This document shows positions 16,103-56,717 of a stretch of 64,000 nt of DNA, piece by piece; positions within the stretch are counted from its first letter, which is position 1, and the number at the start of each line of letters is the position of its first letter. Source of the stretch: Nitrospirota bacterium (GTDB lineage Bacteria; Nitrospirota; Thermodesulfovibrionia; Thermodesulfovibrionales; JdFR-86); the NCBI GenBank assembly GCA_963721805.1, contig CAVRJY010000001.1, positions 1 to 64,000 on the forward strand, read 5' to 3'. The position numbers and the translations under genes are program-made. The notes under the pieces are model-generated. The model saw only the letters and a program-made list of their open reading frames with translations. It did no database searches and was not told the origin of the DNA.

Positions 16103-16383
16103 GCGAGGCGGAAAAGCCCTGCTGGAGCCGGACGGCGGATGGGATCACGCTTCGGGTGCGCGTGCAGCCGCGCGCATCGCACGCCGGGATCGAGGGGATC
16201 AAGGGCGATACCCTCCGCGTGCGCCTCAACGCCCCCCCGGCGGATGGCAGGGCCAACGCCGAGCTGATCGAGATGCTGTCGAAGGCGCTCCACATCAGAA
16301 AAAGTGACATCGAGATAATACGGGGACATGCCGCACGAGAGAAGACTGTCGCGATCAGAGGGCTGGATAAGTTACCTCTTTGA
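16099..16383 (+). CDS. DUF167/YggU family protein
   Basis: VRVQPRAS...APPADGRANAEL...GHAAREK. Confidence 0.88.
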   Translation: MSEAEKPCWSRTADGITLRVRVQPRASHAGIEGIKGDTLRVRLNAPPADGRANAELIEMLSKALHIRKSDIEIIRGHAAREKTVAIRGLDKLPL

Positions 16384-16552
16384 AAGCGCTCCAAATCGCT
16401 TGATACTGCGTTAGGCATCAAAGACTCGCCCTCTATGTACGTCACAGTACACCATCGGGCGGTCTTCTCGCCCTGCCTTGTCTGAAGACGATTTGGGCGC
16501 GCTTTCGGGGGGGGGGGCAGACGTGGCCCAGCCGCTGGACCCCCGTGCCCCC
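16383..16552 (+). repeat. Rod-hairpin element (type A), altered tail
   Basis: Arms 16383-16505, apex GTAC GTCACA GTAC, then G-run and ACGTGGCCCAGCCGCTG. Confidence 0.9.
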
Positions 16553-16563
16553 GAGGAATTAAA

Positions 16564-17314
16564 TTATGCGTATATTGATTGTTTTAGATTAAAGTTCTTT
16601 GCTATAAGATGTGCTGCGACATTTCTCATAAGCCATAAGTCTCTTGATAATCTGCGTACATCAGTAGCATCATCCGGGTCTGACGATTGGGTCTGAATAT
16701 GCATGAGCTACAGCGCATCTACAGGATTTGTAAAGATAGTTGGCCGCATCACCGTTTTCTCGCTCAATCTCTGTGATTCTTTTAATGCATTCGGTGTCTT
16801 CCATTTCTGTCAATGTTGAGCGCAACCCCTCGACAAGCTCATTTTTTCCGTCTCTTGTTTTGCCGTTCCAAAAAATGTTCAAAATTTTAAAATAGCCAAG
16901 AATTTTATATGATATGTTCTCTAAGCTTAATGCCTCGCGATACAAGGCAACAGCAAGCATAGCGTCGTAAGGTATGGTGTAAACTTCATTCGGAAATTCA
17001 TTGATCTGATCGGCTCCGAATGGAATTTGATGTTTTGGTAAGGATCCGGGCGCAATAGCCCCGTTTCTTCCAATATGATAATGAGTTATTGCCGGATTGT
17101 CGTCTTTCCAACTTAATGCGCTAAGAAACCTATCAATAATCGTATAGCCTTCAATGTCTGTCATTTGAACAAGCTGAATGTGGATAGACGCAAAGTTATC
17201 TCTGGTACGCGGCATCAGTATAAAAGTGTGATTTCCATATTTGATTTCTTTCTTTTCTTTAGGCCAGGCAGTTTGAGTGGTTACTGCAACGCTTAGCCAC
17301 TTAGGAATTGACAT
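16564..17314 (-). CDS. MauJ-like protein with HEPN-type RxxxxH motif (frameshift near 16681)
   Basis: AVALYREALS...GYFKILN...YLYKSCRCAVAHA; removing one base extends the frame to a stop at 16564; visibly AT-rich. Confidence 0.65.
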
Positions 17315-17366
17315 AATACGATAGGACTGATGAAGGCAATAAGGTTTTCATTTTGTTGATGTCCTG

Positions 17367-17627
17367 CTATTTCTGGCGGGGGGCGGGTGCGCCGCGCAGC
17401 ATGCCTTCGGTGCTCAGGTCTTCGTCGATCTCGGGCCAGTGGATGCCATACCCGCCGGCGCTGATCTCCCACTTGGCTCGCTGGCTCGGCGTTGCGTTTA
17501 GCAGCCTCGGATACCAGACAAGGGGCACTATGATAGTGCGACCGTCCATCAGGTTCACGCTCAACGTTTCCTCATCAATCCGGACGTCCTTTGCGCGCTC
17601 ATCCGCCTGAAGCGCCAAAATACCCAT
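17367..17627 (-). CDS. DUF2442 family protein (putative TA partner)
   Basis: LMDGRTIIVPLVWYPRLLNAT...GIHWPEIDEDLS. Confidence 0.88.
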   Translation of the reverse strand: MGILALQADERAKDVRIDEETLSVNLMDGRTIIVPLVWYPRLLNATPSQRAKWEISAGGYGIHWPEIDEDLSTEGMLRGAPAPRQK

Positions 17628-17844
17628 GCCATGCCTCCAATAAGCTCAAACGGTTTGCGGAGACCAGGGCCTGCAGCTCCCTTAGCTCCTTCGGGCCGAA
17701 GCCGAGGTTCTTGGCAAGCCCCACCGGATCAAGCCAGAACTTCGCCGAAAACCTCTCCCGGTCAATATGGATATGCGGCGGTTCGTTCGTCTCATGGCTG
17801 AAAAAGTAAAAACGATACGCCCCTTCGCGCATGACCGTCGGCAT
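17599..17844 (-). CDS. DUF4160 family protein (putative TA partner)
   Basis: YRFYFFSHETNEPPHIHI...AKFWL. Confidence 0.88.
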   Translation of the reverse strand: MPTVMREGAYRFYFFSHETNEPPHIHIDRERFSAKFWLDPVGLAKNLGFGPKELRELQALVSANRLSLLEAWHGYFGASGG

Positions 17845-17957
17845 GGATAATTATATCACGCTGGGTTTCAAATGACACGGCCAGTCGGCCACGTTCACGT
17901 TTAGCTAATGCTATTAACCACGGAGGCGTGATGGCAGCGGATGGGCTGCTCTTATCA

Positions 17958-18146
17958 ATGCCGTTGACCGCTCGCACGATTAGGCAATATAAACTTAAAG
18001 CGCGATAAATCGCTTCAGACAAGGGGGCCGGTTGGCCCCTGTCTTTTAGGAGAAGTGCCCGTGGCACCCCGACGGTGTACTGAGACGTACTCCGAGGGCG
18101 CGTCTTTGAAGCCATGACGCAGTATCACGCGTATTTAGTGCACTTT
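17958..18146 (-). repeat. Rod-hairpin element (type B) with two inserted mini-hairpins and tail
   Basis: Reverse strand AAAGTGCACTAAATACGCGTGATAC...GTAC GTCTCA GTAC...GTCTGAAGCGATTTATCGCGCTTT...GGTCAACGGCAT. Confidence 0.88.
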
Positions 18147-18173
18147 GAAGAAAGTGACGGTTGCTTGGAGGAG

Positions 18174-19140
18174 CTACAGAAGTTTGGCGGCGTCTTTGGC
18201 GTGGTAGGTGAGTATCAGATCCGCCCCGGCCCGTCTTGATCGAGATCAGTATCTCCATCATCACGCGCTCATAATCGACCCAGCCGCGCTCGGCCGCGGC
18301 CTTCACGAGCGAGTACTCGCCGCTCACGTTATATGCGGCCACCGGCAGGTCGAACGAGGAGCGGACCTCGGAGATGATGTCCAGGTACGAAAGCGCGGGC
18401 TTGACCATGATGATGTCCGCCCCCTCCTCGATGTCGAGCTCGACCTCACGGATCGCCTCGCGGCGGTTGGCCGGGTCCATCTGGTAGGACCGGCGGTCCC
18501 CGAACTGGGGGGCGCACTCGGCGGCCTCCCTAAACGGGCCGTAGAACGAAGAGGCGTACTTCGCGGCATAGCTCATGATCGGGGTGTCGGAAAGGCCCTC
18601 GTCGTCGAGGGCGTCGCGTATGGCCTCCACACGGCCGTCCATCATGTCGGACGGGGCGACCATGTCAGCGCCGGCCTTGGCGTGGGACACGGCCTCGCGC
18701 GCCAGGAGCTCGAGCGTCGGGTCGTTGAGCACGCGGCCGTCCTTGATCACGCCGCAGTGGCCGTGCTCGGTGTACTCGCAGAGGCAGACGTCGGTGATGA
18801 CGTAGAGCTCGGGTACGGCGTCCTTGATCGCGCGGATCGCCTCCTGCACCACGCCGTGGTCGTCGTATGCGCCGGAGCCCAGGGCGTCCTTGGTATCCGG
18901 GATGCCGAAGAGGAGGACCGAGGGGATGCCGAGCTTATGTATCTCCTTGCAGTTTTCGACGAGCATGTCGGCCGATTCCTGATAGCAGCCGGGCATGGAG
19001 GAAATCTCTTTCCTCATGCCCTTGCCGGAGGTGGCGAAGAGCGGGTATATCAGGTCGTCGGGCGTGACGATAGTCTCGCGCACCATGCGCCTGATCACCG
19101 CGTTCTGCCTGAGCCTCCGTGGCCGCTTTATCGGGAACAT
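18174..19140 (-). CDS. hemB: Porphobilinogen synthase (frameshift near 18235)
   Basis: [44 protein letters not shown]-terminus [18 protein letters not shown] in the shifted frame. Confidence 0.95.
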
Positions 19141-19155
19141 GGTCCTTCCCTTATC

Positions 19156-19488
19156 TCAGTGGCAGGAGCTGCCGCAGCTGCCGCTCGAGCAGGAGGACGC
19201 CTTGGGGTTCAGGTCGCGTATGACGAAGCCCTGCGCCTGTCCGTTGTCGACGAAGTCGAATACCTTGCCGCTGAGCTGGCCCTGGGTGTTGGCGTCCGCG
19301 AAGACCCTCATGCCGTTGTGCTCGGTGACGACGTCGCCCTCGGCCGGGTTCTCTTCGAGGTCGAGGCCGAAAGACGGGCCGCAGCAGGAGCTGCCGGAGG
19401 TGAATATCCTCAGGCCCCAGCCGGTCTTGCCCTCGGTGGTGAGGACCTCTTTCGCCTTCTCGGATGCAGTGTCAGTGATCGTAAACAT
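19156..19488 (-). CDS. HesB/IscA-family Fe-S assembly accessory protein
   Basis: ITDTASEK...GLRIF...CCGPSFGLDL...GFVI...SSCSSGSCGSSCH. Confidence 0.8.
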   Translation of the reverse strand: MFTITDTASEKAKEVLTTEGKTGWGLRIFTSGSSCCGPSFGLDLEENPAEGDVVTEHNGMRVFADANTQGQLSGKVFDFVDNGQAQGFVIRDLNPKASSCSSGSCGSSCH

Positions 19489-19595
19489 GGTTTGTTACCT
19501 CCTGAAAATGTTGTCTTTTAGAATAAAACATCAATATGGCAAATGACAACAAGCGATTTGCAATGCCCGTGGGATTCGTTTAGAATCAATGAGAT

Positions 19596-20378
19596 ATGCC
19601 GATACTCGATACCATAGTGACGAAGCGGCGCGAGAGGCTCTCCGCGCGGCGCGCCGAGATGCCTATGCATGAGCTGCGCTCTCTGATCGCCTCGAATGAG
19701 GCCGCGCGCGACTTCAGCGCGGCCATCAGGCGGCGCGGGGCGCGCGTGCGCCTGATCGCGGAGGTGAAGAAGGCCTCGCCCTCGCAGGGGCTGATACGGC
19801 CTGACTTCGACCCGGCGATGATCGCGCGCGTATACGACGGCCGTGCGGACGCGATCTCGGTGCTCACCGAGGAGGACCACTTCATGGGCGATATCGCGTT
19901 TATAGGGATCGTCAAGGCGAACTCGCGCCTCCCCGCGCTCAGGAAGGACTTCATAATAGACGAATACCAGATATACGAGGCGCGCGCGTTCGGCGCGGAC
20001 GCGATCCTGCTGATCGACGCGATACTGGATCCCGCGCAGGCGGACGAGTACCGCCGGATGGCCGCGGAGCTTGGGATGAGCGTGCTGTATGAGGTGCACG
20101 ACATGCATGAGCTCGAGCGCGCCCTTAAGCTCGATATGCCGGTCATCGGGGTTAACAACCGCAACCTCAAGACGATGAAGGTCGACCTGGAGACTACGTT
20201 TATGATGCGCTCCGAGGTGCCCCGCGATAAGATCATGGTGAGCGAGAGCGGTATCTCGACATTCGAGGACGTGCAGCGGCTCGATGCGGCCGGGGTGGAC
20301 GCGATGCTCGTAGGGACGTCCCTGATGCGCGCACCGGACATCGCCGGTGCGATCGACGCGCTGCGGGGCGGCGCGTAA
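19596..20378 (+). CDS. trpC: Indole-3-glycerol phosphate synthase
   Basis: IAEVKKASPSQG, ISVLTE, LRKDFI, GVNNRNL, SESGI. Confidence 0.95.
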   Translation: MPILDTIVTKRRERLSARRAEMPMHELRSLIASNEAARDFSAAIRRRGARVRLIAEVKKASPSQGLIRPDFDPAMIARVYDGRADAISVLTEEDHFMGDIAFIGIVKANSRLPALRKDFIIDEYQIYEARAFGADAILLIDAILDPAQADEYRRMAAELGMSVLYEVHDMHELERALKLDMPVIGVNNRNLKTMKVDLETTFMMRSEVPRDKIMVSESGISTFEDVQRLDAAGVDAMLVGTSLMRAPDIAGAIDALRGGA

Positions 20379-21022
20379 TGCTCAGGGTCAAGATCTGCGG
20401 GATCACCAATATCGAGGACGCGCGTGCGGCGGTCTCGTTCGGGGCCGATGCGCTCGGGTTCATCTTCCACCCCAGGAGCGCGCGATATATTTCACCCGAT
20501 GCTGCGGGCCGGATAATAGCGGCCATGCCCCCGTTCGTTATGACGGTGGGAGTCTTCGTCGATGAGACGGCCGAGGCCGTGGTCGAGACCGCGCGCATCG
20601 CGGGGCTCGGGGCGGTGCAGCTCCATGGGGCCGAGACGCCCGAGGTCTGCGCGTCGATAATGGGCCGCGGGATACGGGTGATCAAGGCCGCGCGCGTGCG
20701 CGAGGCCGCCGATGTATACGCGCTCGCGGCATACGACGTCTCGGGCTTCCTTCTCGACGCATACTCGCCCGACCTCCACGGCGGAAGCGGGATCAATGCG
20801 ACTGGACGCTCGCGGCCTCGGCGGTAAGGTCATGACAGGCCGATCATACTCGCCGGAGGGCTCACGCCCGACAACGTAGCCGAGGCGGTGGCTGCGGTGC
20901 AGCCATACGCGGTGGACGTCGCAAGCGGTGTCGAGTCTGCTCCGGGGAGGAAGGATCACGAGAAGGTGCGGAGGTTTATCGAGGCGGCAAAGGGCAAGGC
21001 TTTAAGAGGAAGGGGTCTGTGA
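20378..21022 (+). CDS. trpF: Phosphoribosylanthranilate isomerase (frameshift near 20800)
   Basis: VKICGIT, VQLHG, LLDA, then [11 protein letters not shown] and VDVASGVE in the shifted frame. Confidence 0.92.
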
Positions 21023-21385
21023 CCCCCGTGACCCCACGCGGATGATCGTCTTGAGGTTGCCCCTCGGGTTGAAGTCCCCGGTGACCTCCAGGGCGCGCGG
21101 CTTGAGTTTCTTTTTGAGCGTGTCGTAGATAAGGTTCGTCACCTCCTCGTGCGAGATGCTGCGGTCGCGGAAGGAGTTGAGGTATAGCTTCAGGGCCTTG
21201 AGTTCGACGATCTTCTTATCCGGGATATAAACAATCTTGATCGTGGCGAAGTCCGGATACCCCGAGCGCGGGCACAGGCAGGTGAACTCCGGGAAGCTCA
21301 TGTCGACCTCGTAGTCGCGGTCCGGGCTGGGGTTGTCCCAGAGCTCGAGCCGGGCGGTCTTTATGGCGCGCTCGCCGTATTTCAT
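21002..21385 (-). CDS. queF: PreQ0 reductase, type I
   Basis: [31 protein letters not shown]. Confidence 0.93.
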
Positions 21386-21498
21386 CCGGGCAATCTAACA
21401 CGGCCCCGGCCGAAATGTAAAGCGGGCACGGCCCTTCACCCAGGCGCATGTATGTTAAAATTCCTCTGCCTATAAATTTTGAAGGAGTGCCGAGCGGA

Positions 21499-22260
21499 TT
21501 GACCAGCGACGAACAGATGGCGCCCCGCCCCGAGTTTCTGAGCGTCGTTATACCGGCCTATAACGAGGCCCTGCGGGTGCCGCCCACGATAGAGAGGGTC
21601 TCTGAGTTCCTCAGGGGACGCATGGGAGGCTTCGAGATCCTGCTCGTCGACGACGGGAGCACCGACCACACCGTGACGTTCGTCCGCCGTATGACCTACA
21701 AGTTCCCGGCGGTGCGCATCATCCAGTCGCCCCGCAACATGGGCAAGGGCCATGCGGTGCGCGCGGGCGTGATGGAGGCCAGGGGAGAGCTCATCCTCAT
21801 CACGGATGCCGACCTCTCGACGCCTATAGAGGAGATCAAGAAACTTCTGCCCGCGATAGACGGCGGCGCGGACTTCGCGATAGGCTCTCGCGCGCTCGCG
21901 CGCTCCGAGATCATGATCCGCCAGCCCTGGCACCGCGAGGTCATGGGCCGGACGTTCAACCTCATCGTCAGGGCGCTCGTGATGGGCGGGCTGCACGATA
22001 CGCAGTGCGGGTTCAAGCTGATGAGGGCGGAGGCGGCGCGCCGGGTCTTCGGGCTTGCGCGCATAGACGGCTTCGCGTTTGACGTCGAGGCGCTCTATAT
22101 CGCGCGGAGGCTCGGGTACGGGATCGCGGAGGTCCCGGTCGTCTGGCTGAACTCGCCCTCGTCGCGCGTGGGTCTCGTCGCTGCGCCCGCCTCGATGTTC
22201 GGAGAGCTGCTCCGCATCCGCCTGAACGCGGCGCTCAAGCGCTACGCCCCGCCTGCTTAG
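21499..22260 (+). CDS. GT2 glycosyltransferase (dolichyl-phosphate glucosyltransferase-like)
   Basis: SVVIPAYNE, DDGSTD, GKGHAV, DADLS, DTQCGFK; start uncertain. Confidence 0.88.
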   Translation: MTSDEQMAPRPEFLSVVIPAYNEALRVPPTIERVSEFLRGRMGGFEILLVDDGSTDHTVTFVRRMTYKFPAVRIIQSPRNMGKGHAVRAGVMEARGELILITDADLSTPIEEIKKLLPAIDGGADFAIGSRALARSEIMIRQPWHREVMGRTFNLIVRALVMGGLHDTQCGFKLMRAEAARRVFGLARIDGFAFDVEALYIARRLGYGIAEVPVVWLNSPSSRVGLVAAPASMFGELLRIRLNAALKRYAPPA

Positions 22261-22678
22261 CGGCCCCGCACTTCCCGCACAGCCCCTTGATCTCGAGCGT
22301 GTGCGCGGTGCCCTTAAACGAGCGCTCGGCGCAGAGCTCGTCCTGCAGCCTCTCAAGCTCCGGCGAGTAGAACTCTATCACGCGGCCGCAGCCGGTGCAG
22401 AGCATGTGGTCGTGGTGGCCCCGGCCTATCGCAAGCTCAAACCTCGAGTGCCTGCCGGAGGTCTCGACCGGCTGGATGATGCCAGCCTCAAGCAGGAGCG
22501 GCAGCGTGCGGTATACGGATGCTGTCGAGACGCCCCTGGAATGCCGCCTCGCGGCCGCGAGCAGGTCCTCGGGGTCGAAGTGCCCCCGAAGCCCGAGCGC
22601 GCCGCGCAGTATCGCCTCGCGCCCGGCCGTATAGCGGAGCCCCCTGGCCTTGACGAATTCCCTGAACCGCTCTGACAT
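22235..22678 (-). CDS. fur: Fur family transcriptional repressor
   Basis: SVYRTL, HHDHMLCTGCG, GLCGKC. Confidence 0.9.
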   Translation of the reverse strand: MSERFREFVKARGLRYTAGREAILRGALGLRGHFDPEDLLAAARRHSRGVSTASVYRTLPLLLEAGIIQPVETSGRHSRFELAIGRGHHDHMLCTGCGRVIEFYSPELERLQDELCAERSFKGTAHTLEIKGLCGKCGAAKQAGRSA

Positions 22679-22682
22679 CGGG

Positions 22683-23342
22683 CTATATCTGCCTGACGTA
22701 TATCCCGGCCGCGATCTCCTCGTCGAGAGCCAGCGTGGTCTCGTCGATCATGATCACGTACGAGGGCCTCTTCTGGCTCAGGCGTATGGTCGCGCCCGGC
22801 ACCAGCCCCATCGAGGCGAGCCTCTCGGGGGCGGTGGCGGCGATGAACTGCACGCGCGCGGACTTCCCGACGTCCATGTCCCGGAGGCTCTGGACGAGCG
22901 GCTTCATCTTTTTGGTGAGCATCGTGCAGCACTTCCCGGGCGGGATCGGCTTGCCGTGCGGGCAGGTGGGCGGGTGGCCGAGCATCGTGCATATCGCGCC
23001 CTCGACTTCGGAGCTGATCGCGTGCTCGATCAGGCAGGCGTCGCGCTCGAAGTCCTTCAAGTCCAGGACGTCCGCGAACAGCCGCTCGGCGAGCCTGTGG
23101 CGGCGGATGATGTCGCGCGCGCGGCCCTCGCCCGCCTTGCCGAAGGTTACGGTCTCGCCCTCGATCAAAAGATATCCGTCGCCGCGCATCCGCATGATCG
23201 CGGCCTCGTCCTTGAAGGTCGCGATCAGGTCCTGAAGCCTCACCGGCCCCTGCTCGGACTTCTCCCAGACCTCCTCCAAAACCTCGTCTTCAAAAAGCGC
23301 CTTGTCGATCCCGGCGCATGCCATTACCTTTTCTTCGCCCAT
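22683..23342 (-). CDS. DtxR/MntR-like metal-dependent regulator with C-terminal FeoA domain
   Basis: IIRRHRLAERLF, ACLIEHAIS, CPHGKPIP, RLASMGLVPG. Confidence 0.85.
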   Translation of the reverse strand: MGEEKVMACAGIDKALFEDEVLEEVWEKSEQGPVRLQDLIATFKDEAAIMRMRGDGYLLIEGETVTFGKAGEGRARDIIRRHRLAERLFADVLDLKDFERDACLIEHAISSEVEGAICTMLGHPPTCPHGKPIPPGKCCTMLTKKMKPLVQSLRDMDVGKSARVQFIAATAPERLASMGLVPGATIRLSQKRPSYVIMIDETTLALDEEIAAGIYVRQI

Positions 23343-23352
23343 ACGTGCCCCC

Positions 23353-25356: not shown

Positions 25357-25382
25357 CTGTTGAGCCTCACCTCGCCTTCCTT

Positions 25383-25401
25383 ATTGAAAATGATTCTCAA
25401 T
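25383..25401. promoter_or_regulatory. Fur-box-like operator upstream of feoB
   Basis: 19-bp imperfect palindrome ATTGAAAATGATTCTCAAT about 27 bp before the feoB start. Confidence 0.8.
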
Positions 25402-25447
25402 ATCAAGTATGCAGGGAGGTGCCCTTTATTGTCAAGCCGCCCTACTG

Positions 25448-25767
25448 AAAGCCGCGCTAAATGCGCGTGATACGTTGTCAGTGCTTCAAAGACGCGCCCT
25501 CGGAGTACGTTCAGTACTCCTCCGGGGTGCCATGGGCACCTCTGCCCCCAAGGAAAGGGGCCAACCGGCCCCTCTTATAAATGCCGTTGACCGCCCGCGC
25601 GATTAAGCATAGATAACACTAAAGCGCGATAAATCGCGTCAGACAAGGGTGCCACGGGCACTTTCTTTTTAGGAGAGGGTCCGAGACCCCGCAAGTGTAC
25701 TGGGATGTACTCTGGAGGACGGATTTCCGAGCCGTGACGACGTATCACGCGCATTTAGCGCGGCTTT
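25448..25767. repeat. Convergent pair of type B rod-hairpin elements (no cargo)
   Basis: Forward partial copy 25448-25573 and reverse full copy 25581-25767; the termini AAAGCCGCGCTAAATGCGCGTGATACG are perfectly inverted. Confidence 0.88.
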
Positions 25768-25825
25768 CCCATTAGATACATAACCCTTACATATACTTAT
25801 ATACTTGTGATAAAATGGGGGCACA

Positions 25826-34136: not shown

Positions 34137-34169
34137 ATGCCCCCTATTAACCGCTCCCGCTTATTCGTG

Positions 34170-34573
34170 AAAGCGCTCCAAATCGCTTGATACTTCGTTG
34201 GGCTTCAAAGACTCGCCCTCTATGTACGCCCAAGTACACCATCGGGCGGTCTTCTCGCCCTGCCTCGTCTGAAGACGATTTGGGCGCGCTTTGCGGGGAG
34301 TAAAGAAGCCCCCGCGCCCCCGCGGTCAACGGCGTTATAATATTTTGCATTCACGCGTTTCAAGTTTCGGAGTGTTATAGCGGGTAGGTTGTTCAATCAA
34401 TGCCGTTGACCGCTCGCACGATTAAGCATCGGAAACTTAAAGCGCGATAAATCGCGTCAGACTAGGAACGGCGAGCGGGCCAACCGGAGGCGTATATGGA
34501 CATACGTTGAGGATTGGGCCCGCTTGGTCAAATAGTGCCGTGACGCAGTATCACGCGCATTTAGCGCGACTTT
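34170..34573. repeat. Convergent pair of rod-hairpin elements: type A forward (34170-34335) and type B reverse (34400-34573)
   Basis: Tails GGTCAACGGCGT and ATGCCGTTGACC face each other across about 65 bp. Confidence 0.9.
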
Positions 34574-34625
34574 CAAATATGGTATCATTAAAGCTCATTT
34601 TTTCACTTCGGGGGTATAACCAGCT

Positions 34626-39666: not shown

Positions 39667-39737
39667 ATCTCGTGCGAGCGGTCAACGGCATTGATTATGT
39701 ATCGCGTTTTCGGGGGGTAACGTGGCCAAGCCGCTGC
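39667..39737 (+). repeat. Isolated tail of rod-hairpin element plus junction motif
   Basis: CGTGCGAGCGGTCAACGGCATTGA then CGCGTTTTCGGGGGG..ACGTGGCCAAGCCGCTG (compare 16498-16537). Confidence 0.75.
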
Positions 39738-39768
39738 CTTGGCCTCTGTGAAATTGGAGTGGGAAAGA

Positions 39769-40194
39769 TCAGGCTTTATTCCCAGCGTCGGAAAAAAATT
39801 TATTAATTTTGCGAGTGAGTTGAACATTATCGATTAACTGACATTCCCATACTACCAATACTTGCCATCCAAGTTTTTTCAGTTGCTTAACGTTTATTCT
39901 GTCTCGGTCGATATTTCTTTGAATTTTGGGTATCCAATAATCAACATTCGACTTAGGTTTTCTTCTTCCTTCCTTGCAGCTATGTCCGTGCCAAAAGCAG
40001 CCATTGATAAAGATAGCCTTTTTCTTTTTGAGCCATGCTAAGTCTGGTTTCCCCGGTAAATCCGCCCTATATAGACGATATCCAGCATATCCGAGTCTCC
40101 ATACAATACGGCGGATTTGCAGCTCAGACATGGTGTTTTTTGCACGTATCTGGCGCATATTGTGTGATCGTCTTAGCGGGTCGATATTATCCAT
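39769..40194 (-). CDS. vsr: Very short patch repair endonuclease
   Basis: RSHNMRQIRAKNT, LPGKPDL, FINGCFWHGH, RNIDRD, GWQVLVVWEC. Confidence 0.92.
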   Translation of the reverse strand: MDNIDPLRRSHNMRQIRAKNTMSELQIRRIVWRLGYAGYRLYRADLPGKPDLAWLKKKKAIFINGCFWHGHSCKEGRRKPKSNVDYWIPKIQRNIDRDRINVKQLKKLGWQVLVVWECQLIDNVQLTRKINKFFSDAGNKA

Positions 40195-40248
40195 AACGCT
40201 TAGCCCTCTTGTCATTAATGCATGGCGTAATTGCTGGGCTAAATAGGG

Positions 40249-41109
40249 CTAAACTGCAAGGTCTAAAGGTAAATCAGAAATATCCTTTAGCCTCTTGCCT
40301 TCAACCATTATTTTTAAAAGCTCCATTGCTTCTTCATTTTGAAGAGTATTTACTCTTTCTTGGAGTTCATGTAAGGCAAAATGATATACACAATCAATTT
40401 CGCCAGTTCCTAACGCAATGGAAGATAACCGGCTGGGAAGAGGCTCTGCGGTAACAACAACAATATGCGGCAGATGCCCTTTTCGGTTCTTTATAAGATT
40501 GAGCGCTTCAGAGCGGCTATTCTGGCTTCTATCGGAGCGGATAGTCCATTTGGATGAGATGGAGGCATGCAAAAGTGGTTTGCCTCCGTTTGCCTTTCGC
40601 AGATCGGCTTTTCTTGCAACAGATTCATCAACCAATATATTAGTTTTATTGATTTCATCATCCTCAAGCAGATGGCGTATTATGATCACATCGGGTGTTA
40701 TAGTGTAATCGCTACCCAAAGAAGCGGCAAGCTCTGGATCATGTTTCGCCGCTTTGTCTAACGCTATGAGATGCTTATATTGCTCAAACTCAGCAATTGC
40801 AAGGCGGTTTCGATTTCCGATCCTTCGAATTTCCCATCTGCCGGGCCTAATATTGCCAAGAGCAAGAAAGGTTTCTTGAATATAATCTGCTGTGATTGCT
40901 TCAAACTCAGACCCGCTTGTTTGGCCCGCCAAGCGTTTACCGGTTTCACTTTGTAGTTTCTCTGCTATTCCAGAGGCGATACGTACTGAAAGCTTATTAT
41001 CCTTGTCAGCATTGCTGGGAATGCCATGGGCGTCAATTGTCAAAACGGACTCTAACAGCTTTGCATGGAATTTTTTGCGAGCCTTAGCGATAAAAGATTC
41101 TTTAGGCAT
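40249..41109 (-). CDS. NgoMIV-family type II restriction endonuclease (predicted site GCCGGC)
   Basis: GQTSG..FE, YTITPD, LHASISSKWTIRSDRSQNSRSE, VTAEPLPSRL; TGATG coupling to the MTase. Confidence 0.88.
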   Translation of the reverse strand: MPKESFIAKARKKFHAKLLESVLTIDAHGIPSNADKDNKLSVRIASGIAEKLQSETGKRLAGQTSGSEFEAITADYIQETFLALGNIRPGRWEIRRIGNRNRLAIAEFEQYKHLIALDKAAKHDPELAASLGSDYTITPDVIIIRHLLEDDEINKTNILVDESVARKADLRKANGGKPLLHASISSKWTIRSDRSQNSRSEALNLIKNRKGHLPHIVVVTAEPLPSRLSSIALGTGEIDCVYHFALHELQERVNTLQNEEAMELLKIMVEGKRLKDISDLPLDLAV

Positions 41110-42071
41110 CAGATCACCTTCTTCAATTTTCTTTTTGATGCTAACTCCATTGCGGACTTTATTTGATATCCTACAGCGCACGCTACCGGTGAAGGAAAAG
41201 CATTGCCTACCTGCCGGTATGCAGCTGTCTTCTTTCCGTGAAATTGCCATTCATCTGGAAAGCCTTGTATGCGGGCGGCCATCCGCACCGTTAAGCGTGG
41301 CATACCTATAAAATCACGATCAGGCGCAAGGTCAGCGATTCCGTGGCCATCAACGCCCAAACTGGCCCATGCACGTTTTGCACGCGTCGGGCCTAAATCT
41401 GGCCCTCCATGTTTCTTGCTGCCACCGACCAGCGTTGGGGCAATGTCACAGGCGCGTTCTCTCCAGGATTTAGCGCCTCTCCAGCCACGCTCTGCCATTA
41501 GGTCAAATAAAACTTTCCCAACAGAAGGCGGATTGAGCTTGTATGGTTCAGGCCAATTGAAGTGATCAGCCAGATCGCTTCGCAATGCAACAAAAACCAC
41601 GCGTGGGCGCAGCTGCGGAACCCCATAATCACAGGCATTCAAAAGACGCCACTCGGTTGAATAGCCAAGCTTGCGTAGTGCTTTCACGATGCCCGCCCGA
41701 TATTCGTCAAAGACAGTATCGAGCAAGCCTCGGACGTTTTCAAGCATAACGGCGCGTGGACGGCATTCGCTAATAAGCCGAATCGCTTCTGGAAACAAAT
41801 CCCGCTCATCTTCATCCCCGAGCTGCTTACCTGCTTTAGAAAATGGCGGACAAGGAACACCCCCGGCAATCAGATCAACTCCGGCATAGTGCTTCGCGTT
41901 GAAATCCTTAATATCACCTTCAAGCACCATCCATCCCGGACGGTTGAGCCTAAGTGTAGCGCAGGCAGATGGGTCAATCTCAACAAGACACGCGTGCTCA
42001 AACCCGGCCACCTCCAAGCCCAAAGCCTGGCCGCCAGCACCAGCACATATCTCAATCGACGTTAACGGCAT
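41109..42071 (-). CDS. C5-cytosine DNA methyltransferase (M.NgoMIV/NaeI-like)
   Basis: ICAGAGG, GGVPCPPFS, ENVRG, PQLRPR, TRD GGSKKHGGPDLGPTRAK, QVGNA. Confidence 0.93.
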   Translation of the reverse strand: MPLTSIEICAGAGGQALGLEVAGFEHACLVEIDPSACATLRLNRPGWMVLEGDIKDFNAKHYAGVDLIAGGVPCPPFSKAGKQLGDEDERDLFPEAIRLISECRPRAVMLENVRGLLDTVFDEYRAGIVKALRKLGYSTEWRLLNACDYGVPQLRPRVVFVALRSDLADHFNWPEPYKLNPPSVGKVLFDLMAERGWRGAKSWRERACDIAPTLVGGSKKHGGPDLGPTRAKRAWASLGVDGHGIADLAPDRDFIGMPRLTVRMAARIQGFPDEWQFHGKKTAAYRQVGNAFPSPVACAVGYQIKSAMELASKRKLKKVI

Positions 42072-42213
42072 GTATTTCGAGCTATAATTATTATGCGGAA
42101 TCCCATGAGATATTCTAACAGACTACAATCGCATTGTGTCAAAAAATGAAGCACTCTGTGTTATAAACGTCGGCCCATTAGATGCCATATGCTTCCCCTT
42201 TCCACTAACCATA

Positions 42214-42813
42214 GTGAAGCTCCCCGTGGCAAGCCACGGGGCATCCGTGGCGCAGCTATAAGTCCAGCTGCGCAGGCAATTGCTTCTCTGCTCTGTGGCC
42301 GCGTATGTATTTGCGGATCATTTCCGAGGTCAAGCTGTCCCCGACTGTCCGCGCAAAGTACCCATCCTCCCACAGCTCACCCTTCCATAGTCTTTGCCTC
42401 AGCGATGGGTATTGCTTGAACAGCTCACGGGCGCTGATACTTTTCAGGGTTCTGACCACCACCCCTATCGAGTACCGTGGCGGGAACGATAGAAATATAT
42501 GCACATGGTCCTCCGCCACTTCCATCTCCACTATCTCATATTCATACTCTTCAGCTATCTCCCTGAAAAGTTCCGCGCACCGCTCGCGCATGTAACTTTG
42601 CGCGAACAGTCTCTTGCGATACTTAGGACACCATACCAGATGGTACCCGGTGTCATATACAGCGTGACTCGTCCTGCGTAACCCCATGCCTCATGATAGC
42701 CCGCAATTGCCTCGGCGGGAAAGGGGGACTTCCAGCCCCCCTTACATCCCCCCGGCAGGGATGCCATTCATCCCCGTGGCAAGCCACGGGGCATACTGGC
42801 ATGGTTTTCGTTA
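42214..42813 (-). mobile_element. IS200/IS605-family element, tnpA only
   Basis: Identical subterminal hairpins TCCCCGTGGCAAGCCACGGGGCAT at 42221 and 42771; reverse strand ends ...GCTTCAC and begins after TTGAT; exact ends inferred. Confidence 0.85.
42256..42687 (-). CDS. tnpA: Y1 (HUH) transposase
   Basis: YHLVWCPKYR, DHVHI, LKSISAR, LWEDGYF, KYI. Confidence 0.95.
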   Translation of the reverse strand: MGLRRTSHAVYDTGYHLVWCPKYRKRLFAQSYMRERCAELFREIAEEYEYEIVEMEVAEDHVHIFLSFPPRYSIGVVVRTLKSISARELFKQYPSLRQRLWKGELWEDGYFARTVGDSLTSEMIRKYIRGHRAEKQLPAQLDL

Positions 42814-42851
42814 ATCAAAAACGCACGTTTTCTAATTTTTCCTATTAGCTT

Positions 42852-42869
42852 CGGTTTATATATAAACCG
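42852..42869. promoter_or_regulatory. Perfect 18-bp palindrome, possible operator
   Basis: CGGTTTATATATAAACCG. Confidence 0.45.
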
Positions 42870-42993
42870 TAGTTGGATCGACATTTTGTGCGGAGTGTGC
42901 TTCAATACGGAATGGGCCAGATAAGGTCATATTGGAGGGCGCGGAAAGCACTCGACGGCATCCGGAAAAATGCCTTTGAGTGCCCGGTTGGCG

Positions 42994-43166
42994 CATCCGA
43001 ACAAAACCCCGAAAAACCGGCTAAAACATCCGAACATCCGAACACCCTCAAAACAAGAAAATGTAGGCTTTTCGCATGGTTTCACACTATTTTACGCCCA
43101 ACATCCGAACAAAAACGGCAAAAACGCGCGCGCACGCGCGCGGAATGCATAACTATACCTATGACC
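42994..43166 (+). repeat. CATCCGAAC-repeat element, copy 2
   Basis: CATCCGAAC at 42994, 43027, 43035, 43102, then AAAAACGCGCGCG...TAACTAT. Confidence 0.75.
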
Positions 43167-43178
43167 GGCCCTCAAATC

Positions 43179-43352
43179 ATGCCGTTGACCTTGTGGGGTG
43201 CGGGGGGCTTCCGTCATCCTCTCCCCCCGAAAGCGCGCCCAAATCGACTTCAGACAAGGCAGGGCGAGAAGACCGCCCGATGGTGTACTTGGGCGTACAT
43301 AGAGGGCGAGTCTTCGATGCCCAACGCAGTATCAAGCGATTTGGCGCGCTTT
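43179..43352 (-). repeat. Rod-hairpin element (type A), reverse
   Basis: Near-identical reverse complement of the 34170 and 52792 copies, including the tail. Confidence 0.9.
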
Positions 43353-43380
43353 GAAAGACCGTGCATGAAGGAGGTAAGCG

Positions 43381-43815
43381 ATGTTAAAAGAATTTAAAGA
43401 GTTCGCAGTTAGGGGCAACGTCGTGGATATGGCCGTCGGTATCGTGATCGGCGCTGCCTTCGGCAAGATCGTGACCTCGTTCGTGAGCGACATGCTCATG
43501 CCGCCCATCGGCCTGCTGATGGGCAAGGTCGATTTCTCGAACCTGTTTATCAACCTATCGGCCACGTCATATGGCACGCTCGCCGAGGCCAAGGCCGCCG
43601 GGGCACCGACGCTGAACTACGGCCTGTTCTTGAACACGCTGATCGACTTCGTGATCGTGGCGTTCGCGATATTCCTCTTCGTGCGCCAGATGAACCGCCT
43701 GCGCCGCTCGGAGGCGCCTCCGCCGCCCGCGACAAAGGACTGCGCATACTGCCTGTCGGCCATACCGGTATTGGCGACGCGCTGCCCGCATTGTACGTCC
43801 GAGCTAAAGGGCTGA
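43381..43815 (+). CDS. mscL: Large-conductance mechanosensitive channel with C-terminal zinc ribbon
   Basis: [33 protein letters not shown]...CPHC tail. Confidence 0.95.
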
Positions 43816-51650: not shown

Positions 51651-51663
51651 GTGCCCTATCATG

Positions 51664-52763: not shown

Positions 52764-52791
52764 CCGCAATCGGCAAACCGCTACCTTTTTC

Positions 52792-53054
52792 AAAGCGCGC
52801 CAAATCGCTTGATACTTCGTTGGGCTTCAAAGACTCGCCCTCCATGTACGCCCAAGTACACCATCGGGCGGTCTTCTCGCCCTGCCTTGTCTGAAGCCGA
52901 TTTGGGCGCGCTTTCGGGGGGAGAGGAAGGGGGCCAGTCGGCCCCGCCCCCCGCGCCCCACAAGGTCAACGGCATTAGCTAGAGGTGAGCGCTTTGGCGC
53001 GATTAGTGAGAGGGCCAGTCGGCCCCGAATAGTGAGAGGTGCCCGTGGCACCCC
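52792..53054 (+). repeat. Rod-hairpin element (type A) with tail (to 52975) plus type D module
   Basis: Arms 52792-52914, GGTCAACGGCAT at 52964, GAGCGCTTTGGCGCGATTAGTGAG... at 52987. Confidence 0.9.
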
Positions 53055-53183
53055 TTATGCGCTTTTAAGGGCCGCGATATCGAGCTTGGTCATTTTAATC
53101 AAGGCCGCCATCACGCGCTCGGCCTTCGCTGCATCGCTGTTTTGCAGCAATTCGTCCAGAACGCTGGGGACGATCTTCTGCAT
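53055..53183 (-). pseudogene. Internally deleted PhnB/VOC-family gene (42 aa)
   Basis: AAGGAGG RBS + MQKIVPSVLDELLQNSDAAKAERVMAALIKMTKLDIAALKSA: a typical N-terminus joined to a typical C-terminus. Confidence 0.65.
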
Positions 53184-53337
53184 GCCAGCCTCCTTAGATG
53201 GTGTGATCCACAGATCTTAGTGCAAGACGAGGCCGGGCGCAATCAGGCTTGACAGCCCGCTTAATCGCCACTAGAATTCACTCAAGAGGCGGTTACTGCG
53301 ATACAAACAATCCTCACGAGTGCCGAAGGAGGCGTCA

Positions 53338-53709: not shown

Positions 53710-53753
53710 GGGGCCGCGCCACCTGGCAACTATTCGCTGCTTGCCGCTCACTT

Positions 53754-53780
53754 AAAGGGGCCGTAAGGCCCCTTTTCTTT
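53754..53780. terminator. Intrinsic terminator, possibly bidirectional
   Basis: AAAGGGGCC-GTAA-GGCCCCTTTTCTTT between convergent genes. Confidence 0.78.
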
Positions 53781-53783
53781 CAA

Positions 53784-53850
53784 GGCTTCAAAGTCGCGCC
53801 CCCGGAGTGCGTCTCAGTACACCTGCGGGGCGCCGCGGGCACTTCCCTCC
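53784..53850 (+). repeat. Degenerate internal fragment of type B element
   Basis: GGCTTCAAAGTCGCGCCCCCGGAGTGCGTCTCAGTACACC...GGGCACTT matches the reverse of 18050-18115. Confidence 0.7.
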
Positions 53851-53879
53851 CCAGGCCCACCACTGAAGCCAGCCCCATT

Positions 53880-56564
53880 TCATTTGTCCAGGACTTCTCT
53901 TATCTTTTTTAACAGATCCTTAGGCGATACCGGTTTCATGATAAAATTCAATTCTTCTTTAAACATACTGTCCTTCTCTATCCTGTCCGCGGTGTACCCG
54001 CTGGAAAAGAGGGCTTTCAGATCGGGCCTCAAGTTTATCATGCTGTCATACGCCTCTTTGCCGCTTTTCCTGGGCATTATCATGTCAAGCATGACAAGCT
54101 GAATTTTATCTTTGTTGTCCATGAATTTATTTATTGCTTCCTCTCCGTCTTCAGCGAGAATTACGTTGTAGCCGTACGACTGCAGTACGGTTGAAAAGAG
54201 TTTTCTTAATGCGGCGTCATCCTCGGCAACGAGTATCGTCTCGGTCCCTCTCGATGGAAGCGGTTCGGCGGCTGTTTTGACAATGACTTCTTCCGTTGAT
54301 TTGATTGCCGGAAGATATATCCTGAATGTAGTTCCCTTTTCAGGCTCACTGTATACGTTTATATAACCGTTGTGCTGCTTTATTATGCCGTATGACATCG
54401 CAAGACCCAGCCCGGTGCCCTTCCCGACCTCCTTGGTAGTAAAGAAAGGCTCGAATATCTTGGACATTGTCTCTTTTCCCATCCCGCTGCCTGTGTCAGA
54501 GACGGAAATGACCGCAAACATTCCGGGCTCCCCGTAACCATGGGCTTGAATGAAGGTCTCGTCCAGTTCCACGAGTTGCGTGTCCAGGGTCAGCTGTCCT
54601 CCGTGTGGCATGGCATCCCTCGCGTTCATCGCAAGGTTCAGGAGCACCTGCTCTATCTGGCCGGCGTCCGCCATACTGATCGCTTCTTTTCCGGCGAAGT
54701 GCGTGCTCAGCTCGATATCCTCGCCGATCAGCCTGGAGAGTAACTTCCCGAACCGCTGCATCAAGGCGTTTATATTTACAGGCTTGGGATTCAATATCTG
54801 TTTTCTGCTGAAGGCAAGAAGGCTGTATGTGATCTCAGCGGCCCTGTCTGCCGATGTGAGTATCAGGTCCACGTATTCTCTCAGGGGGTCTTCGCTCTTA
54901 ATGTCCGCCTGAAGGAGACTTCCATAGCCCATGATTGCCTGCAGGATATTGTTGAAGTCATGCGCGATCCCTCCGGCAAGAAGCCCGACGGATTCCATCT
55001 TCTGGGCCTGGAGAAGTTGCTCTTCGAGATTGTTGCGTTCCGTGAGGTCTCTGCCTACGCCGCTTATGCCTATCGGCTTCCCTGTATGGTCCCTGAGCAG
55101 TGCGGCTTTGAATTCATGGGGGATCTGCTTACCCTCTTTAGTGACAACCGCGGCATCAAGCGTGGCGCTGCCTTCGCTAACCGCCTTCCCAAAGGCCTCG
55201 GATACCCGCACTATATCATCGTTTCGGAAGAAATCAGTAACCTTCATCAGGGCGATTTCGCTGTCGGTGTAGCCTATGACCTCATTCATTGCCTTATTCC
55301 ACCTGATGAACCTTCCATCCAAATCAAAGACAAAGAATATGTCATTCAGTGTGTTTAGCGCATCTTCAATAAACGTCTTTTCTTTTTTAAGCGTTTCCTC
55401 GGCCAGCTTCCGATCGGTGACATCGCGAATATTGCATTGTGCCAGCCTTGCCCTGTCGACCATGTATATGTCCGCGAAGATATCTTGCCCTGACTTGGTT
55501 TTTATCGAAACTTCATCGTAATTAATAATGGAGCTCTTGCCCAAAGCCTGCATTATCGCCGGGAAGTCACTCGTGTCCAGCGACACGCCGATTTCCTGAA
55601 GCTGTTTCCCGACCGACTCCTCTTCGGAATAGCCCAACATCTTCTTGGTGGCCGGATTCACATGGACTATAGTCCCCGCGTGTTTTTCGAGGAGCACTAT
55701 CCCGTCGCTTGCGGTCTCAAAAATTCTCCTGTATTGCTCTTCGGAGTCTGTTAACAAGTCTTCCAGGCGCTTGCGCTCTGTGATGTCCTCGATGGCGAGA
55801 AGGATGATCCGCTCTTTCCCGGACGCTCTTTTGATCTGCCGGGCGTTTAACAGCATTATGCGCCTGCCGATGTCAGAAAAATCGTGTTCAACCTCATAGT
55901 CGTCAAAGGTGGCCTTCTGTGGGAGGATGTTCTCCAGCAGCTCCCGCAGGCTCGGGATGTCCCACTGCTTGTTGCCGAGGTCATAGATAAGCTGTCCCAC
56001 GGTCTCGGTGGGGTTTACCTTAAAGACCTCATAGAAGGAGCGGCTGGCGGAGACCACCCTCAGGTCCTGGTCCAGGGCGATTAAGGGCTCGCGCACGGTA
56101 TTGATGATGTTCACGGCGTATTCGCGCGCTTCGTCCACGGTTATTTTAGCCGACTGCAGCTCTATGCGGGCTTTTTCGAGCCCGTTTTCTATCTCCTTGC
56201 GCTCGGTGATGTCCTCGATGGCGAGAAGGATTATCGGCAGCGCGTCTTTCTTTTCCCTGATTTTGCAGGCGTTAAGGAGCATGGTCTTCTGCCCGATGCT
56301 CTCAAAAACATGTTCGATTTCGTAGTCATCGACCGTGTCGTTCTTCGAGAGGATATCCTCAAGCAGCACGCGGAGGTACGGGATGTCCCATTGTCCGTTT
56401 CCGAGTTCGTATAAAAGAGAGCCGATCGTATTAGCGGAATCCACCTTGAAGATTTTGAAGAAACTGCGATTGGCCGACAGGACTCTCATGTTTTCATCCA
56501 GTATGAGAATGGCCTCGCGAACCGTGTTAAAAATGTTCCTGAAATAGTCGTCCTGGATTAACAC
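53880..56564 (-). CDS. Multi-PAS hybrid sensor kinase/response regulator
   Basis: Four PAS units, AGGIAHDFNN, NARDAM, PFFTTK, GTGLGL, C-terminal REC; visibly lower GC than the flanks. Confidence 0.92.
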   Translation of the reverse strand: MLIQDDYFRNIFNTVREAILILDENMRVLSANRSFFKIFKVDSANTIGSLLYELGNGQWDIPYLRVLLEDILSKNDTVDDYEIEHVFESIGQKTMLLNACKIREKKDALPIILLAIEDITERKEIENGLEKARIELQSAKITVDEAREYAVNIINTVREPLIALDQDLRVVSASRSFYEVFKVNPTETVGQLIYDLGNKQWDIPSLRELLENILPQKATFDDYEVEHDFSDIGRRIMLLNARQIKRASGKERIILLAIEDITERKRLEDLLTDSEEQYRRIFETASDGIVLLEKHAGTIVHVNPATKKMLGYSEEESVGKQLQEIGVSLDTSDFPAIMQALGKSSIINYDEVSIKTKSGQDIFADIYMVDRARLAQCNIRDVTDRKLAEETLKKEKTFIEDALNTLNDIFFVFDLDGRFIRWNKAMNEVIGYTDSEIALMKVTDFFRNDDIVRVSEAFGKAVSEGSATLDAAVVTKEGKQIPHEFKAALLRDHTGKPIGISGVGRDLTERNNLEEQLLQAQKMESVGLLAGGIAHDFNNILQAIMGYGSLLQADIKSEDPLREYVDLILTSADRAAEITYSLLAFSRKQILNPKPVNINALMQRFGKLLSRLIGEDIELSTHFAGKEAISMADAGQIEQVLLNLAMNARDAMPHGGQLTLDTQLVELDETFIQAHGYGEPGMFAVISVSDTGSGMGKETMSKIFEPFFTTKEVGKGTGLGLAMSYGIIKQHNGYINVYSEPEKGTTFRIYLPAIKSTEEVIVKTAAEPLPSRGTETILVAEDDAALRKLFSTVLQSYGYNVILAEDGEEAINKFMDNKDKIQLVMLDMIMPRKSGKEAYDSMINLRPDLKALFSSGYTADRIEKDSMFKEELNFIMKPVSPKDLLKKIREVLDK

Positions 56565-56654
56565 CTATCCGCTCCGGTCATGAAACAATAAATATACTGT
56601 GCCCACACCTCATGTTAGTCCAATCCGCATGCCTTTGCAAGCAGCGTGCGGCCT

Positions 56655-56717
56655 AGTGCGTGCTCCGGGGACGATTTTCGAGCGGTGGCGCATTATCACG
56701 CAAGTTTAGGGCGCTTT
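56655..56717 (-). repeat. Degenerate left arm of type B element
   Basis: Reverse strand AAAGCGCCCTAAACTTGCGTGATAATGCGCCAC...AAAATCGTCCCCGGAGCAC. Confidence 0.65.

Follow-up and report, generated by a model that had tools for sequence, protein, structure and literature searches.

The dif modules of Acinetobacter plasmids are described as small and heterogeneous modules without a recombinase that carry toxin-antitoxin and resistance or defence genes. Two inverted copies of a 28-bp pdif site for XerC and XerD bound each module, many modules occur per replicon, and the recombinase is thought to be supplied in trans (PMC6449649, PMC13141974, PMC7399989). An insertion sequence (IS) family that targets the border sites of dif modules also exists (PMC10132070). 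Integron cassettes, including those of clusters of attC sites lacking integron integrases (CALINs), are accessory cassettes without a recombinase whose guanine-plus-cytosine (GC) content lies below that of the host, and their attC site is folded and imperfectly paired, with a structure more conserved than its sequence (PMC4889954 / 10.1101/030866; 10.1101/2022.02.28.482270). The REP, BIME and REPIN sequences associated with RAYT are abundant intergenic palindromic repeats that form inverted doublets near gene ends, are long-lived in lineages and take mosaic composite arrangements; the abstracts do not describe REPINs as bracketing gene cargo (PMC3116915, PMC3337134, PMC2817692). In Acinetobacter, identical MITEs (miniature transposable elements with inverted repeats), which are non-autonomous, surround disparate integrons as pairs of repeats flanking unrelated cargo, and mobilization in trans is proposed (PMC10969869). 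Here, a 64,000-nt stretch of a Nitrospirota bacterium (the window; positions 1 to 64,000 of contig CAVRJY010000001.1, assembly GCA_963721805.1) is compared with these systems. The window holds copies of a structured repeat, termed element E, which stand head to head around AT-richer, foreign-looking genes, and for which a role in gene capture is proposed.

Element E is a repeat of ~190 nt made of a rod-shaped hairpin (~125 nt) and a 3' head, GGTCAACGGCAT, and eight copies in the window align over ~190 nt. It begins with a T-rich lead-in that is only loosely conserved. The 5' arm opens with AAAGCGC and holds a TGATAC that is invariant, GTAC-N6-GTAC forms the apex, and the 3' arm holds an invariant CCTNGTCTGA and closes with GCGCTTT. 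A variable tail of 30-60 nt follows, of two main types, A (GC-rich) and B, and then the head, with the consensus GGTCAACGGC(A/T)T, mostly continued by TGATTAGAG-like bases. With at most one mismatch, GGTCAACGGCAT is seen eight times in the window against 0.24 expected, and the head motif is present at 177 of 178 E 3' ends. For the copy at 52782-52980, folding gives a single long rod (-90.4 kcal/mol, z = -4.0). The GC of E, 0.57, is host-like. Stem and tail types combine as a mosaic (a/A 91, b/B 22, a/B 21, b/A 20), and no left or right specialization of E subtypes was found within pairs.

In the rod, invariant unpaired UGAU(AC) and (GU)CUGA lie opposite each other beside a canonical stem, for example at 52805-52815 and 52889-52898. 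The arrangement resembles a kink-turn of the box C/D type. The kink-turn idea found no support, and an L7Ae-family protein was not found in this genome; among other genomes checked, G031 and G032 have one each and none was found in G033 or G034. Elsewhere in the genome, three tandem partial copies of E, each cut at the apex and then restarting, lie at C1:456391-456633.

Copies of E were located throughout the assembly (2.78 Mb in nine contigs, 0.60 GC, 94% complete) with a sequence profile built from the eight window copies. The genome holds 240 copies (128 on the + strand, 112 on the - strand), 170 of them full length. Among 234 adjacent pairs, 73 are convergent, 71 divergent and 90 tandem, with median gaps of 1600, 8748 and 4066 bp and with 45, 9 and 38 pairs, respectively, less than 2 kb apart. 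When only neighbours closer than 3 kb are counted, 54 of 105 are convergent, against 26.2 +/- 3.9 after strand shuffling (at most 40 in 5000 shuffles). Sixty convergent pairs enclose 300-10,000 bp; GC averages 0.477 inside them and 0.618 in their flanks. Low-GC segments, defined as 400-nt windows below 0.50 GC, were called 199 times in the genome; at those edges that have an E in reach, the head points inward in 120 of 127 cases and outward in 7, and 36 segments have an inward-facing E on both edges. The first-pass annotation of the window had described inward-facing pairs around AT-rich DNA and had suggested that their orientation and the GC of the enclosed DNA be checked genome-wide. On that scale the orientation is non-random and the enclosed DNA deviates as described. 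The densest contig, C5 (97 kb), has 29 copies of E, about one per 3.3 kb, including seven cargo pairs.

The DNA that follows 180 heads is a second module, M, in 47 cases, other low-GC DNA in 61, an inverted second head in 5, a third module, T, in 15 and DNA of ordinary GC in 52. Module T, which follows some solo heads, is a repeated GAGNNNAGCGC..GCGCGAATAG unit with GC-rich hairpins such as GGCCAGTCGGCC. Module M is a non-coding module of ~400 nt, present in 54 copies longer than 100 nt with 76-90% identity and 0.46 GC. It starts with a GC hairpin and a T-run that score as terminator-like and face transcripts coming through E, and it carries five 9-nt iterons, GTTCGGATG or the variant GTTCAAATGA. 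All 34 full copies end at one 16-bp perfect palindrome, ATTAACTATAGTTAAT, preceded by an extra ATTAAC, and the sequences beyond it are unrelated. The placement of M is tied to the head: 47 of the 54 copies share the orientation of a head and begin between -15 and +43 nt from it, and for 36 of these 47 a convergent E lies within 8 kb. Module M adjoins both A-type tails (36) and B-type tails (9), and the head is the only sequence that is constant across E-M junctions. Because M follows the heads in their own orientation, with a convergent E nearby, the common layout is E> M> genes <E, of which the window gives an example from 43358 back to 39680.

In most copies of M, the reverse strand has an open frame of ~85-110 codons that spans the iterons and the GC hairpin (for example 42873-43397, +). 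A coding role was considered and rejected, as variation per codon position is 0.69, 0.75 and 0.74; given this lack of codon periodicity, the frame is probably non-coding. Outside this genome, M gave no pattern match in species genomes or viral contigs and no blastn match in plasmids. Transposons of the Tn7 or Mu kind carry multiple binding sites for their transposase at both ends, in inverted orientation. In the cargo of window pair 4, the only cargo scanned for them, no inverted iterons were found at the far end, the iterons there being confined to M at one end.

It is quite possible, if short of an even chance, that the heads are docking sites, where an enzyme supplied in trans inserts or exchanges cassettes that lack a recombinase. 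In such a mechanism, E would be a resident, host-like structured repeat, with a rod core that is old and found across phyla and a head carried in this lineage. Low-GC cassettes with no recombinase of their own would enter or swap at the head of E, mostly between a pair of copies that stand head to head, to give E> cargo <E, and the trans-acting enzyme would perform the insertion or exchange at the heads. Cassettes would often be led by M, which may supply iterons for protein binding, a terminator that faces the host side and a junction at a defined point. The cargo borders would be recombination products, the empty head-to-head doublets would serve as acceptor sites, and a trans-acting recombinase would have to exist. 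The first-pass annotation had suggested either a recurrent insertion platform with its recombinase encoded elsewhere or a non-autonomous composite unit. The platform is supported by the inward-facing heads, the unique cargo, the empty doublets and the lack of tyrosine or serine recombinases in the scanned cargo ORFs, and the enzyme it calls for was not found.

The cargo itself was examined as 160 open reading frames (ORFs) called in 57 enclosed segments of up to 6.5 kb. Of these, 135 were scanned against Pfam, the other 25 being mostly shorter than 90 amino acids (aa), and 34 ORFs near orphan M copies were scanned in addition. Each cargo segment is unique, and the only DNA of at least 150 nt that segments have in common is an IS200 element, an IS481-like element, M and one 557-nt match at 83% identity. 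Restriction-modification genes include an MmeI type, an N6/N4 methylase fused to Mrr and an NgoMIV type with Vsr, and toxin-antitoxin genes include HicA, Gp49 with HTH, MazE, ParE with Phd, HepT with MNT, and DUF2442 with DUF4160. Other matches are to Abi_C, HEPN, KAP NTPase, HNH, PLD, HD-CE with TPR, SRAP, ankyrin, kinases and radical SAM; many cargo ORFs have no Pfam family match at all. The only recombinases in the scanned cargo ORFs are the IS200 and IS481-like transposases, with no tyrosine or serine recombinase among them.

The inverted copies of E could be the long terminal inverted repeats of a composite or foldback transposon, moved whole by a transposase encoded elsewhere, as with the MITE pairs around Acinetobacter integrons (PMC10969869). 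The formal likeness is real: the inverted arms reach 147 nt with 92-96% complementarity, as transposon ends might, and the empty doublets resemble MITEs. Nevertheless, the first-pass annotation could identify no target-site duplications in the window, and this holds at the outer ends of 55 pairs, where the longest word shared by the two sides averages 5.11, compared with 5.16 when pairings are shuffled; around solo copies of E, a flanking repeat of at least 10 nt was found in 1 of 67. No E-cargo-E unit was found twice within the genome, the paired arms are often of differing subtype, the outer ends have only the loose T-rich lead-in, and no transposase gene flanked by E ends occurs among the scanned cargo ORFs. 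A composite unit that moves whole is therefore disfavoured and very unlikely.

Passive exchange would need no dedicated enzyme. Minimal mobile elements of Neisseria are exchanged between conserved flanks, and homologous recombination within the 190-nt arms of E could likewise swap the flanked DNA with that of related cells, inverted arms surviving since recombination between them inverts the cargo and does not delete it. This is an appreciable if minor possibility. It fits the absence of target-site duplications and of a recombinase in cis, the mosaic of stems and tails, which frequent recombination between copies would give, the random combination of subtypes in paired copies (AB 23, AA 16, BB 4) and the varying length of the head-M linkers. 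It leaves unexplained why only heads face the cargo, given that divergent repeats would be equally stable, yet only 9 of the 71 divergent pairs lie within 2 kb. The first entry of DNA of 0.35-0.55 GC between host-like repeats, and the fusion of M to the head in 47 of 54 copies, are not accounted for either.

The surroundings of E bear on two further explanations. By crude gene calls, the outer (5') end of E adjoins a gene end in 142 of 222 copies (median 11 nt) and a gene start in 80. E could thus be a 3'-end element of host genes, with the islets lying by chance between convergent genes, as the excess of gene ends over gene starts would suggest. By the same calls, however, cargo-flanking copies have a gene end as their outer neighbour in 66 cases and a gene start in 28, or ~30% of the 94 copies that have a near neighbour, which equals the proportion in solo copies. 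Because these proportions are equal, the cargo-facing orientation of E is not simply inherited from the neighbouring gene. Moreover, with ~240 copies per ~2400 called genes, placement on both sides of an islet should be rare by chance, yet 36 islets are two-sided, and a by-product of this kind is highly improbable.

Alternatively, E could arrive second, either inserting preferentially at borders between host and AT-rich DNA or being kept there by selection as an insulator against transcription from the islet. The closeness of the E 5' end to host genes would suit such a role, as would the terminator-like hairpin of M that faces transcripts through E, and the conservation of the rod structure across phyla (described below) points to a function of its own. 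Against this stand seven doublets genome-wide with a gap below 100 nt and no foreign DNA inside, 67 full-length solo copies outside pairs, and a joining of M to the head that is too regular for independent arrival; nor is there a known mechanism that orients insertion by the composition of one flank. This order of events is considered unlikely.

The rod is not confined to this genome. A degenerate pattern of its invariant motifs matched at least 64 loci in species genomes, some chance matches being expected, and many of these foreign loci have further conserved bases and a fold in common with E. For a covariance model, 24 copies of this genome were combined with 24 foreign ones. The model found 35, 24 and 62 matches in three uncultured Clostridia genomes, 59 in a deltaproteobacterial metagenome-assembled genome and 3 in a betaproteobacterium. 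Among 150 other Nitrospirota genomes sampled, 13 had matches, with 8 of 11 in one family, few candidates having been scored per genome. In the mixed alignment, 82.1% of cells are paired against 64.9% in shuffles (0 of 500 reached the observed value) and 34-44% with slid partners, and 330 cells are changed on both sides against 130 in shuffles, figures that the relatedness of the copies may affect. The rod core is an uncatalogued structured family, older than the bracketing system and present across phyla. Since it is multi-copy in genomes of Clostridia, Desulfobacterota and Nitrospirota, whatever binds the rod may be widespread.

The head was not found on foreign rod copies. Among those listed, the Clostridia copies are same-strand neighbours per contig, sometimes in tandem arrays, and are not convergent pairs. 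Bracketing seems tied to the head-bearing E of this lineage. A weak hint the other way, and one that would suit the late arrival of E, is that at 19 of 23 foreign loci, which are not independent, GC is lower 3' of the rod than 5' of it. Head-to-tail rod arrays with a period of ~130 nt occur in Clostridia genomes G031 (for example C5:109985-110429 and C6:102870-103268 of that genome) and G033. In viral contigs, seven pattern matches included one real rod copy (65.6 bits), at 1475-1616 of a 13-kb predicted viral contig, between two opposite-strand ORFs. Y1 transposases occur in four of five other rod-bearing genomes, none near a listed rod copy.

Element E itself gave no BLAST match in 30 relatives, and its exact 26-nt core had no match in species genomes. 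Metagenome-assembled genomes of Nitrospirota and Thermodesulfovibrionales encode proteins 72-77% identical to the HemB of the window. No E-like match was found around purD in 80 metagenome loci (best 73% identity; 755,511 bases) or around hemB in 16 Nitrospirota loci (136,981 bases). As purD and hemB loci share only two gene arrangements with the window, no orthologous empty or filled site could be compared.

Several observations weigh against insertion at heads by a trans-acting enzyme. None of the seven tyrosine recombinases in the genome (XerD, a XerC-like protein and five phage-type integrases) adjoins an E, and there is one serine recombinase, with no candidate enzyme linked to E. Neither excision, insertion or inversion nor variation in presence or absence was seen; the sole public DNA run that contains this genome has 18% of the sampled words and covers window positions 6001-26000 only in short contigs at ~3x depth without usable joints, and no RNA run with it is listed. 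Missing coverage of cargo 1 in that run carries no weight as evidence. Gene capture is thus proposed rather than observed, since no recombinase was identified and no rearrangement or polymorphism was detected. The orientation pattern is strong yet does not cover all foreign-looking DNA, because at 112 of the 199 low-GC segments neither edge has an E; 52 of the 180 heads face DNA of ordinary GC. Of 58 classified pairs, 23 lack M, including window pairs 1 and 5, both members of pair 5 lack a head, and the head-M junction is not precise to the base, with linkers of 0-22 nt. In relatives, the purD and hemB loci are without elements and share only MGS-purD-next gene and FeS-hemB with the window, and the sole convergent pair in a same-family relative (G003) encloses mostly DNA of 0.59-0.64 GC. 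The host-gene neighbour counts around E, finally, come from a home-made gene caller.

The genome was also searched for the machinery of known systems. No integron integrase is present among the seven tyrosine recombinases, the best score for TIGR02249 being 126.5 bits (XerD) against a cut-off of 265 (NCBIfam). The XerD score of 335.1 bits (cut-off 329.6) and the XerC-like score of 332.6 bits (cut-off 335.15) are in keeping with a host Xer pair. With a dif consensus, at most three mismatches in 15 specified bases and +/-60 nt searched around each head, dif-like sites were found in 0 of 180 head regions. The only dif-like site in the genome with no mismatch to the dif core and XerD arm lies near C1:1448128 (-) and is probably the chromosomal dif. 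The head sequence GGTCAAC agrees by eye with the attC box RYYYAAC at six of seven positions and has no partner box, and E sites form inverted pairs and not the direct array of attC. No RAYT was found, as PF01797 finds only six identical IS200 transposases of 143-144 aa, and E, at ~190 nt with a ~125-nt rod, exceeds REP palindromes of 20-40 bp, although inverted doublets do exist. No autonomous element with E ends was found, the cargo transposases IS200 and IS481-like having different ends of their own; neither E nor M contains the hairpin of the IS200 ends, which PATE-like non-autonomous derivatives of IS200/IS605 would carry for recognition by the resident TnpA, and IS110 and TnpB gave no match in the genome. 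Rfam reported only tRNA in the window at the gathering threshold, and at an E-value of up to 1 nothing beyond a tRNA on E copies, foreign relatives or M. No published account of such a system was found in a search that covered sources other than subscription journals and bioRxiv supplements.

All five convergent pairs that the first-pass annotation had placed in the window exist, with flanks of 0.626-0.647 GC, and their integrity differs: both copies are full in pairs 1 and 3, pair 2 has a truncated left copy, the left copy of pair 4 is reduced to ~25 nt, and pair 5 is made of headless fragments. The three pairs reported as loaded do enclose AT-richer DNA, with the named cargo as described. 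Pair 1 has its left E at 16375..16556 (+), the 5' end of which overlaps the stop of a DUF167 gene (16099-16383); its likeness to other copies stops at ..GAGG, immediately before the head motif. Cargo 1 (16557..17953; 1397 bp, GC 0.472) carries MauJ-like (16670-17314), DUF2442 (17367-17627) and DUF4160 (17599-17844) genes, all on the - strand. The right E, with a B-type tail, is at 17954..18154 (-), with its head at 17958-17969. The adjoining hemB (ALAD) frame, 18046-19140 (-), extends ~39 codons beyond the ends of relatives' proteins, into this E (18046-18210), and the repeat appears to have replaced the native hemB stop.

Pairs 2 and 3 are empty, as reported. Pair 2 (25445..25772) lies between feoB and a HEAT-repeat gene, which are divergent; its left E is truncated (25445-25540, +), its right E is full (25577-25772, -), and 36 nt separate them. 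Pair 3 (34163..34579) consists of two full copies head to head (34163-34339, +, and 34396-34579, -), with 56 nt of 0.41 GC between them, and lies between cheW and a purH-like gene.

Pair 4 encloses 3483 bp of 0.481 GC. Its left border, found by eye and motif search at 39667..39691 (+), is a B-type tail and head (39680-39691) without a rod. Low-GC cargo 2 (39692..42212) encodes Vsr (39769-40215, -), an NgoMIV-type endonuclease (40249-41250, -) and a C5 DNA methylase (41109-42071, -), followed by the 602-bp IS200 (42213..42814, -; Y1 transposase gene tnpA 42256-42687). Module M (42818..43169, -), with its terminator-like GC hairpin at 43142-43125 and five GTTCGGATG iterons, has the orientation of the right E, the head of which it directly follows. 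That E is full length (43175..43358, -; head 43179-43190), and its 5' end is 23 nt upstream of the start of mscL (43381). Pair 5 has a headless rod fragment on the left (53783..53848, +; profile positions 41-106) and a headless 5' fragment on the right (56658..56724, -; profile positions 4-70), which abuts the end of a PBP1A-type gene (56726-59251, -). Between them, cargo 3 (53849..56657; 2809 bp, GC 0.508) encodes a PAS-PAS-HisKA-HATPase-receiver hybrid kinase (53880-56564, -).

Outside the pairs, a full-length solo E lies at 6637..6822 (+), with its head at 6807-6818, and is followed by module T (~6825-6900), here a GAGNNNAGCGC..GCGCGAATAG unit with small GC hairpins. Another full solo E (52783-52977) with module T units (52982-53051) spans 52783..53051 (+) and starts 20 nt past the stop of an OmpA-family gene. 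At 12546..12632 (+), a 5' fragment of E (12546-12596) is joined directly to a module T unit (12589-12632). A fragment of M is found at 95..327 (-), as a profile match to model positions 14-261, and palindromic GGAAC..GTTCC repeats at 4-75 adjoin it; elsewhere in the genome, the same repeats stand before an IS481-like copy. The PAS-domain sensor genes at 7009-10156 contain direct repeats of ~380 nt.

The insertion sequences show preferences of their own. IS200 is a 602-bp unit with six identical copies in the genome. TTAAC stands before each of them, each is located on the head side of an E, and for two the TTAAC is that of the M distal end. As one of six identical copies, inserted after TTAAC at the distal end of M, the IS200 of pair 4 is a secondary passenger. 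The IS481-like element (~1.2-1.3 kb, with a 344-aa rve-type transposase) has ten copies that are 98.5-100% identical. All ten lie inside or beside M, which they truncate at varying positions; convergent pairs enclose seven of them, and 170-270 nt separate the remaining three from an M copy. The element looks to have a target preference for M. The start of the window is the palindromic end region of such an element beside an M fragment (1-95 and 95-327).

Taken together, it is tentatively suggested that this is an undescribed gene-capture system, in which structured repeats of a cross-phylum family would act as oriented docking sites and an enzyme supplied in trans, possibly recognizing the folded rod, would insert or exchange recombinase-less defence and accessory cassettes chromosome-wide, in parallel to integrons and dif modules and with unrelated parts. 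If this is so, the chromosome would have ~60 loaded cassette slots, ~5% of its DNA, rich in restriction-modification, toxin-antitoxin and other defence genes. It would be a further route for organizing and trading bacterial accessory genes without integron, Xer-module or transposon machinery, and there would be an enzyme-and-site pair to look for.

Among the systems introduced at the outset, dif modules share with this one the small, heterogeneous, recombinase-less modules with toxin-antitoxin and defence genes, the two inverted site copies as bounds, the many modules per replicon and a recombinase supposed to act in trans. The IS family that targets dif borders can likewise be compared with the IS481-like element at M. 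Unlike the 28-bp pdif sites, however, the bounds here are 190-nt structured repeats with a 12-nt head, and the modules are chromosomal, belong to a Nitrospirota-like lineage and have an extra, asymmetric 400-nt M. Integron cassettes resemble the cargo in their lack of a recombinase and their low GC, and attC resembles E as a folded, imperfectly paired site. The layout of M, with binding-site-like iterons and a defined junction, also resembles an attI-type platform. In contrast to integrons, the junction at E is 30-40 nt outside the hairpin and not within it, each cassette has an inverted pair of sites, and no integron integrase is present. The REP family is like E in its abundance, inverted doublets, long persistence and mosaic arrangements, whereas E does bracket gene cargo. 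As with the MITE composites, two non-autonomous repeats flank unrelated cargo, but here there are no target-site duplications and no autonomous partner, ~60 cargos are found in one genome, and the head-inward polarity is strict. The system would be placed with trans-mobilized cassettes bounded by inverted sites, with a fair chance of being a kind of its own.

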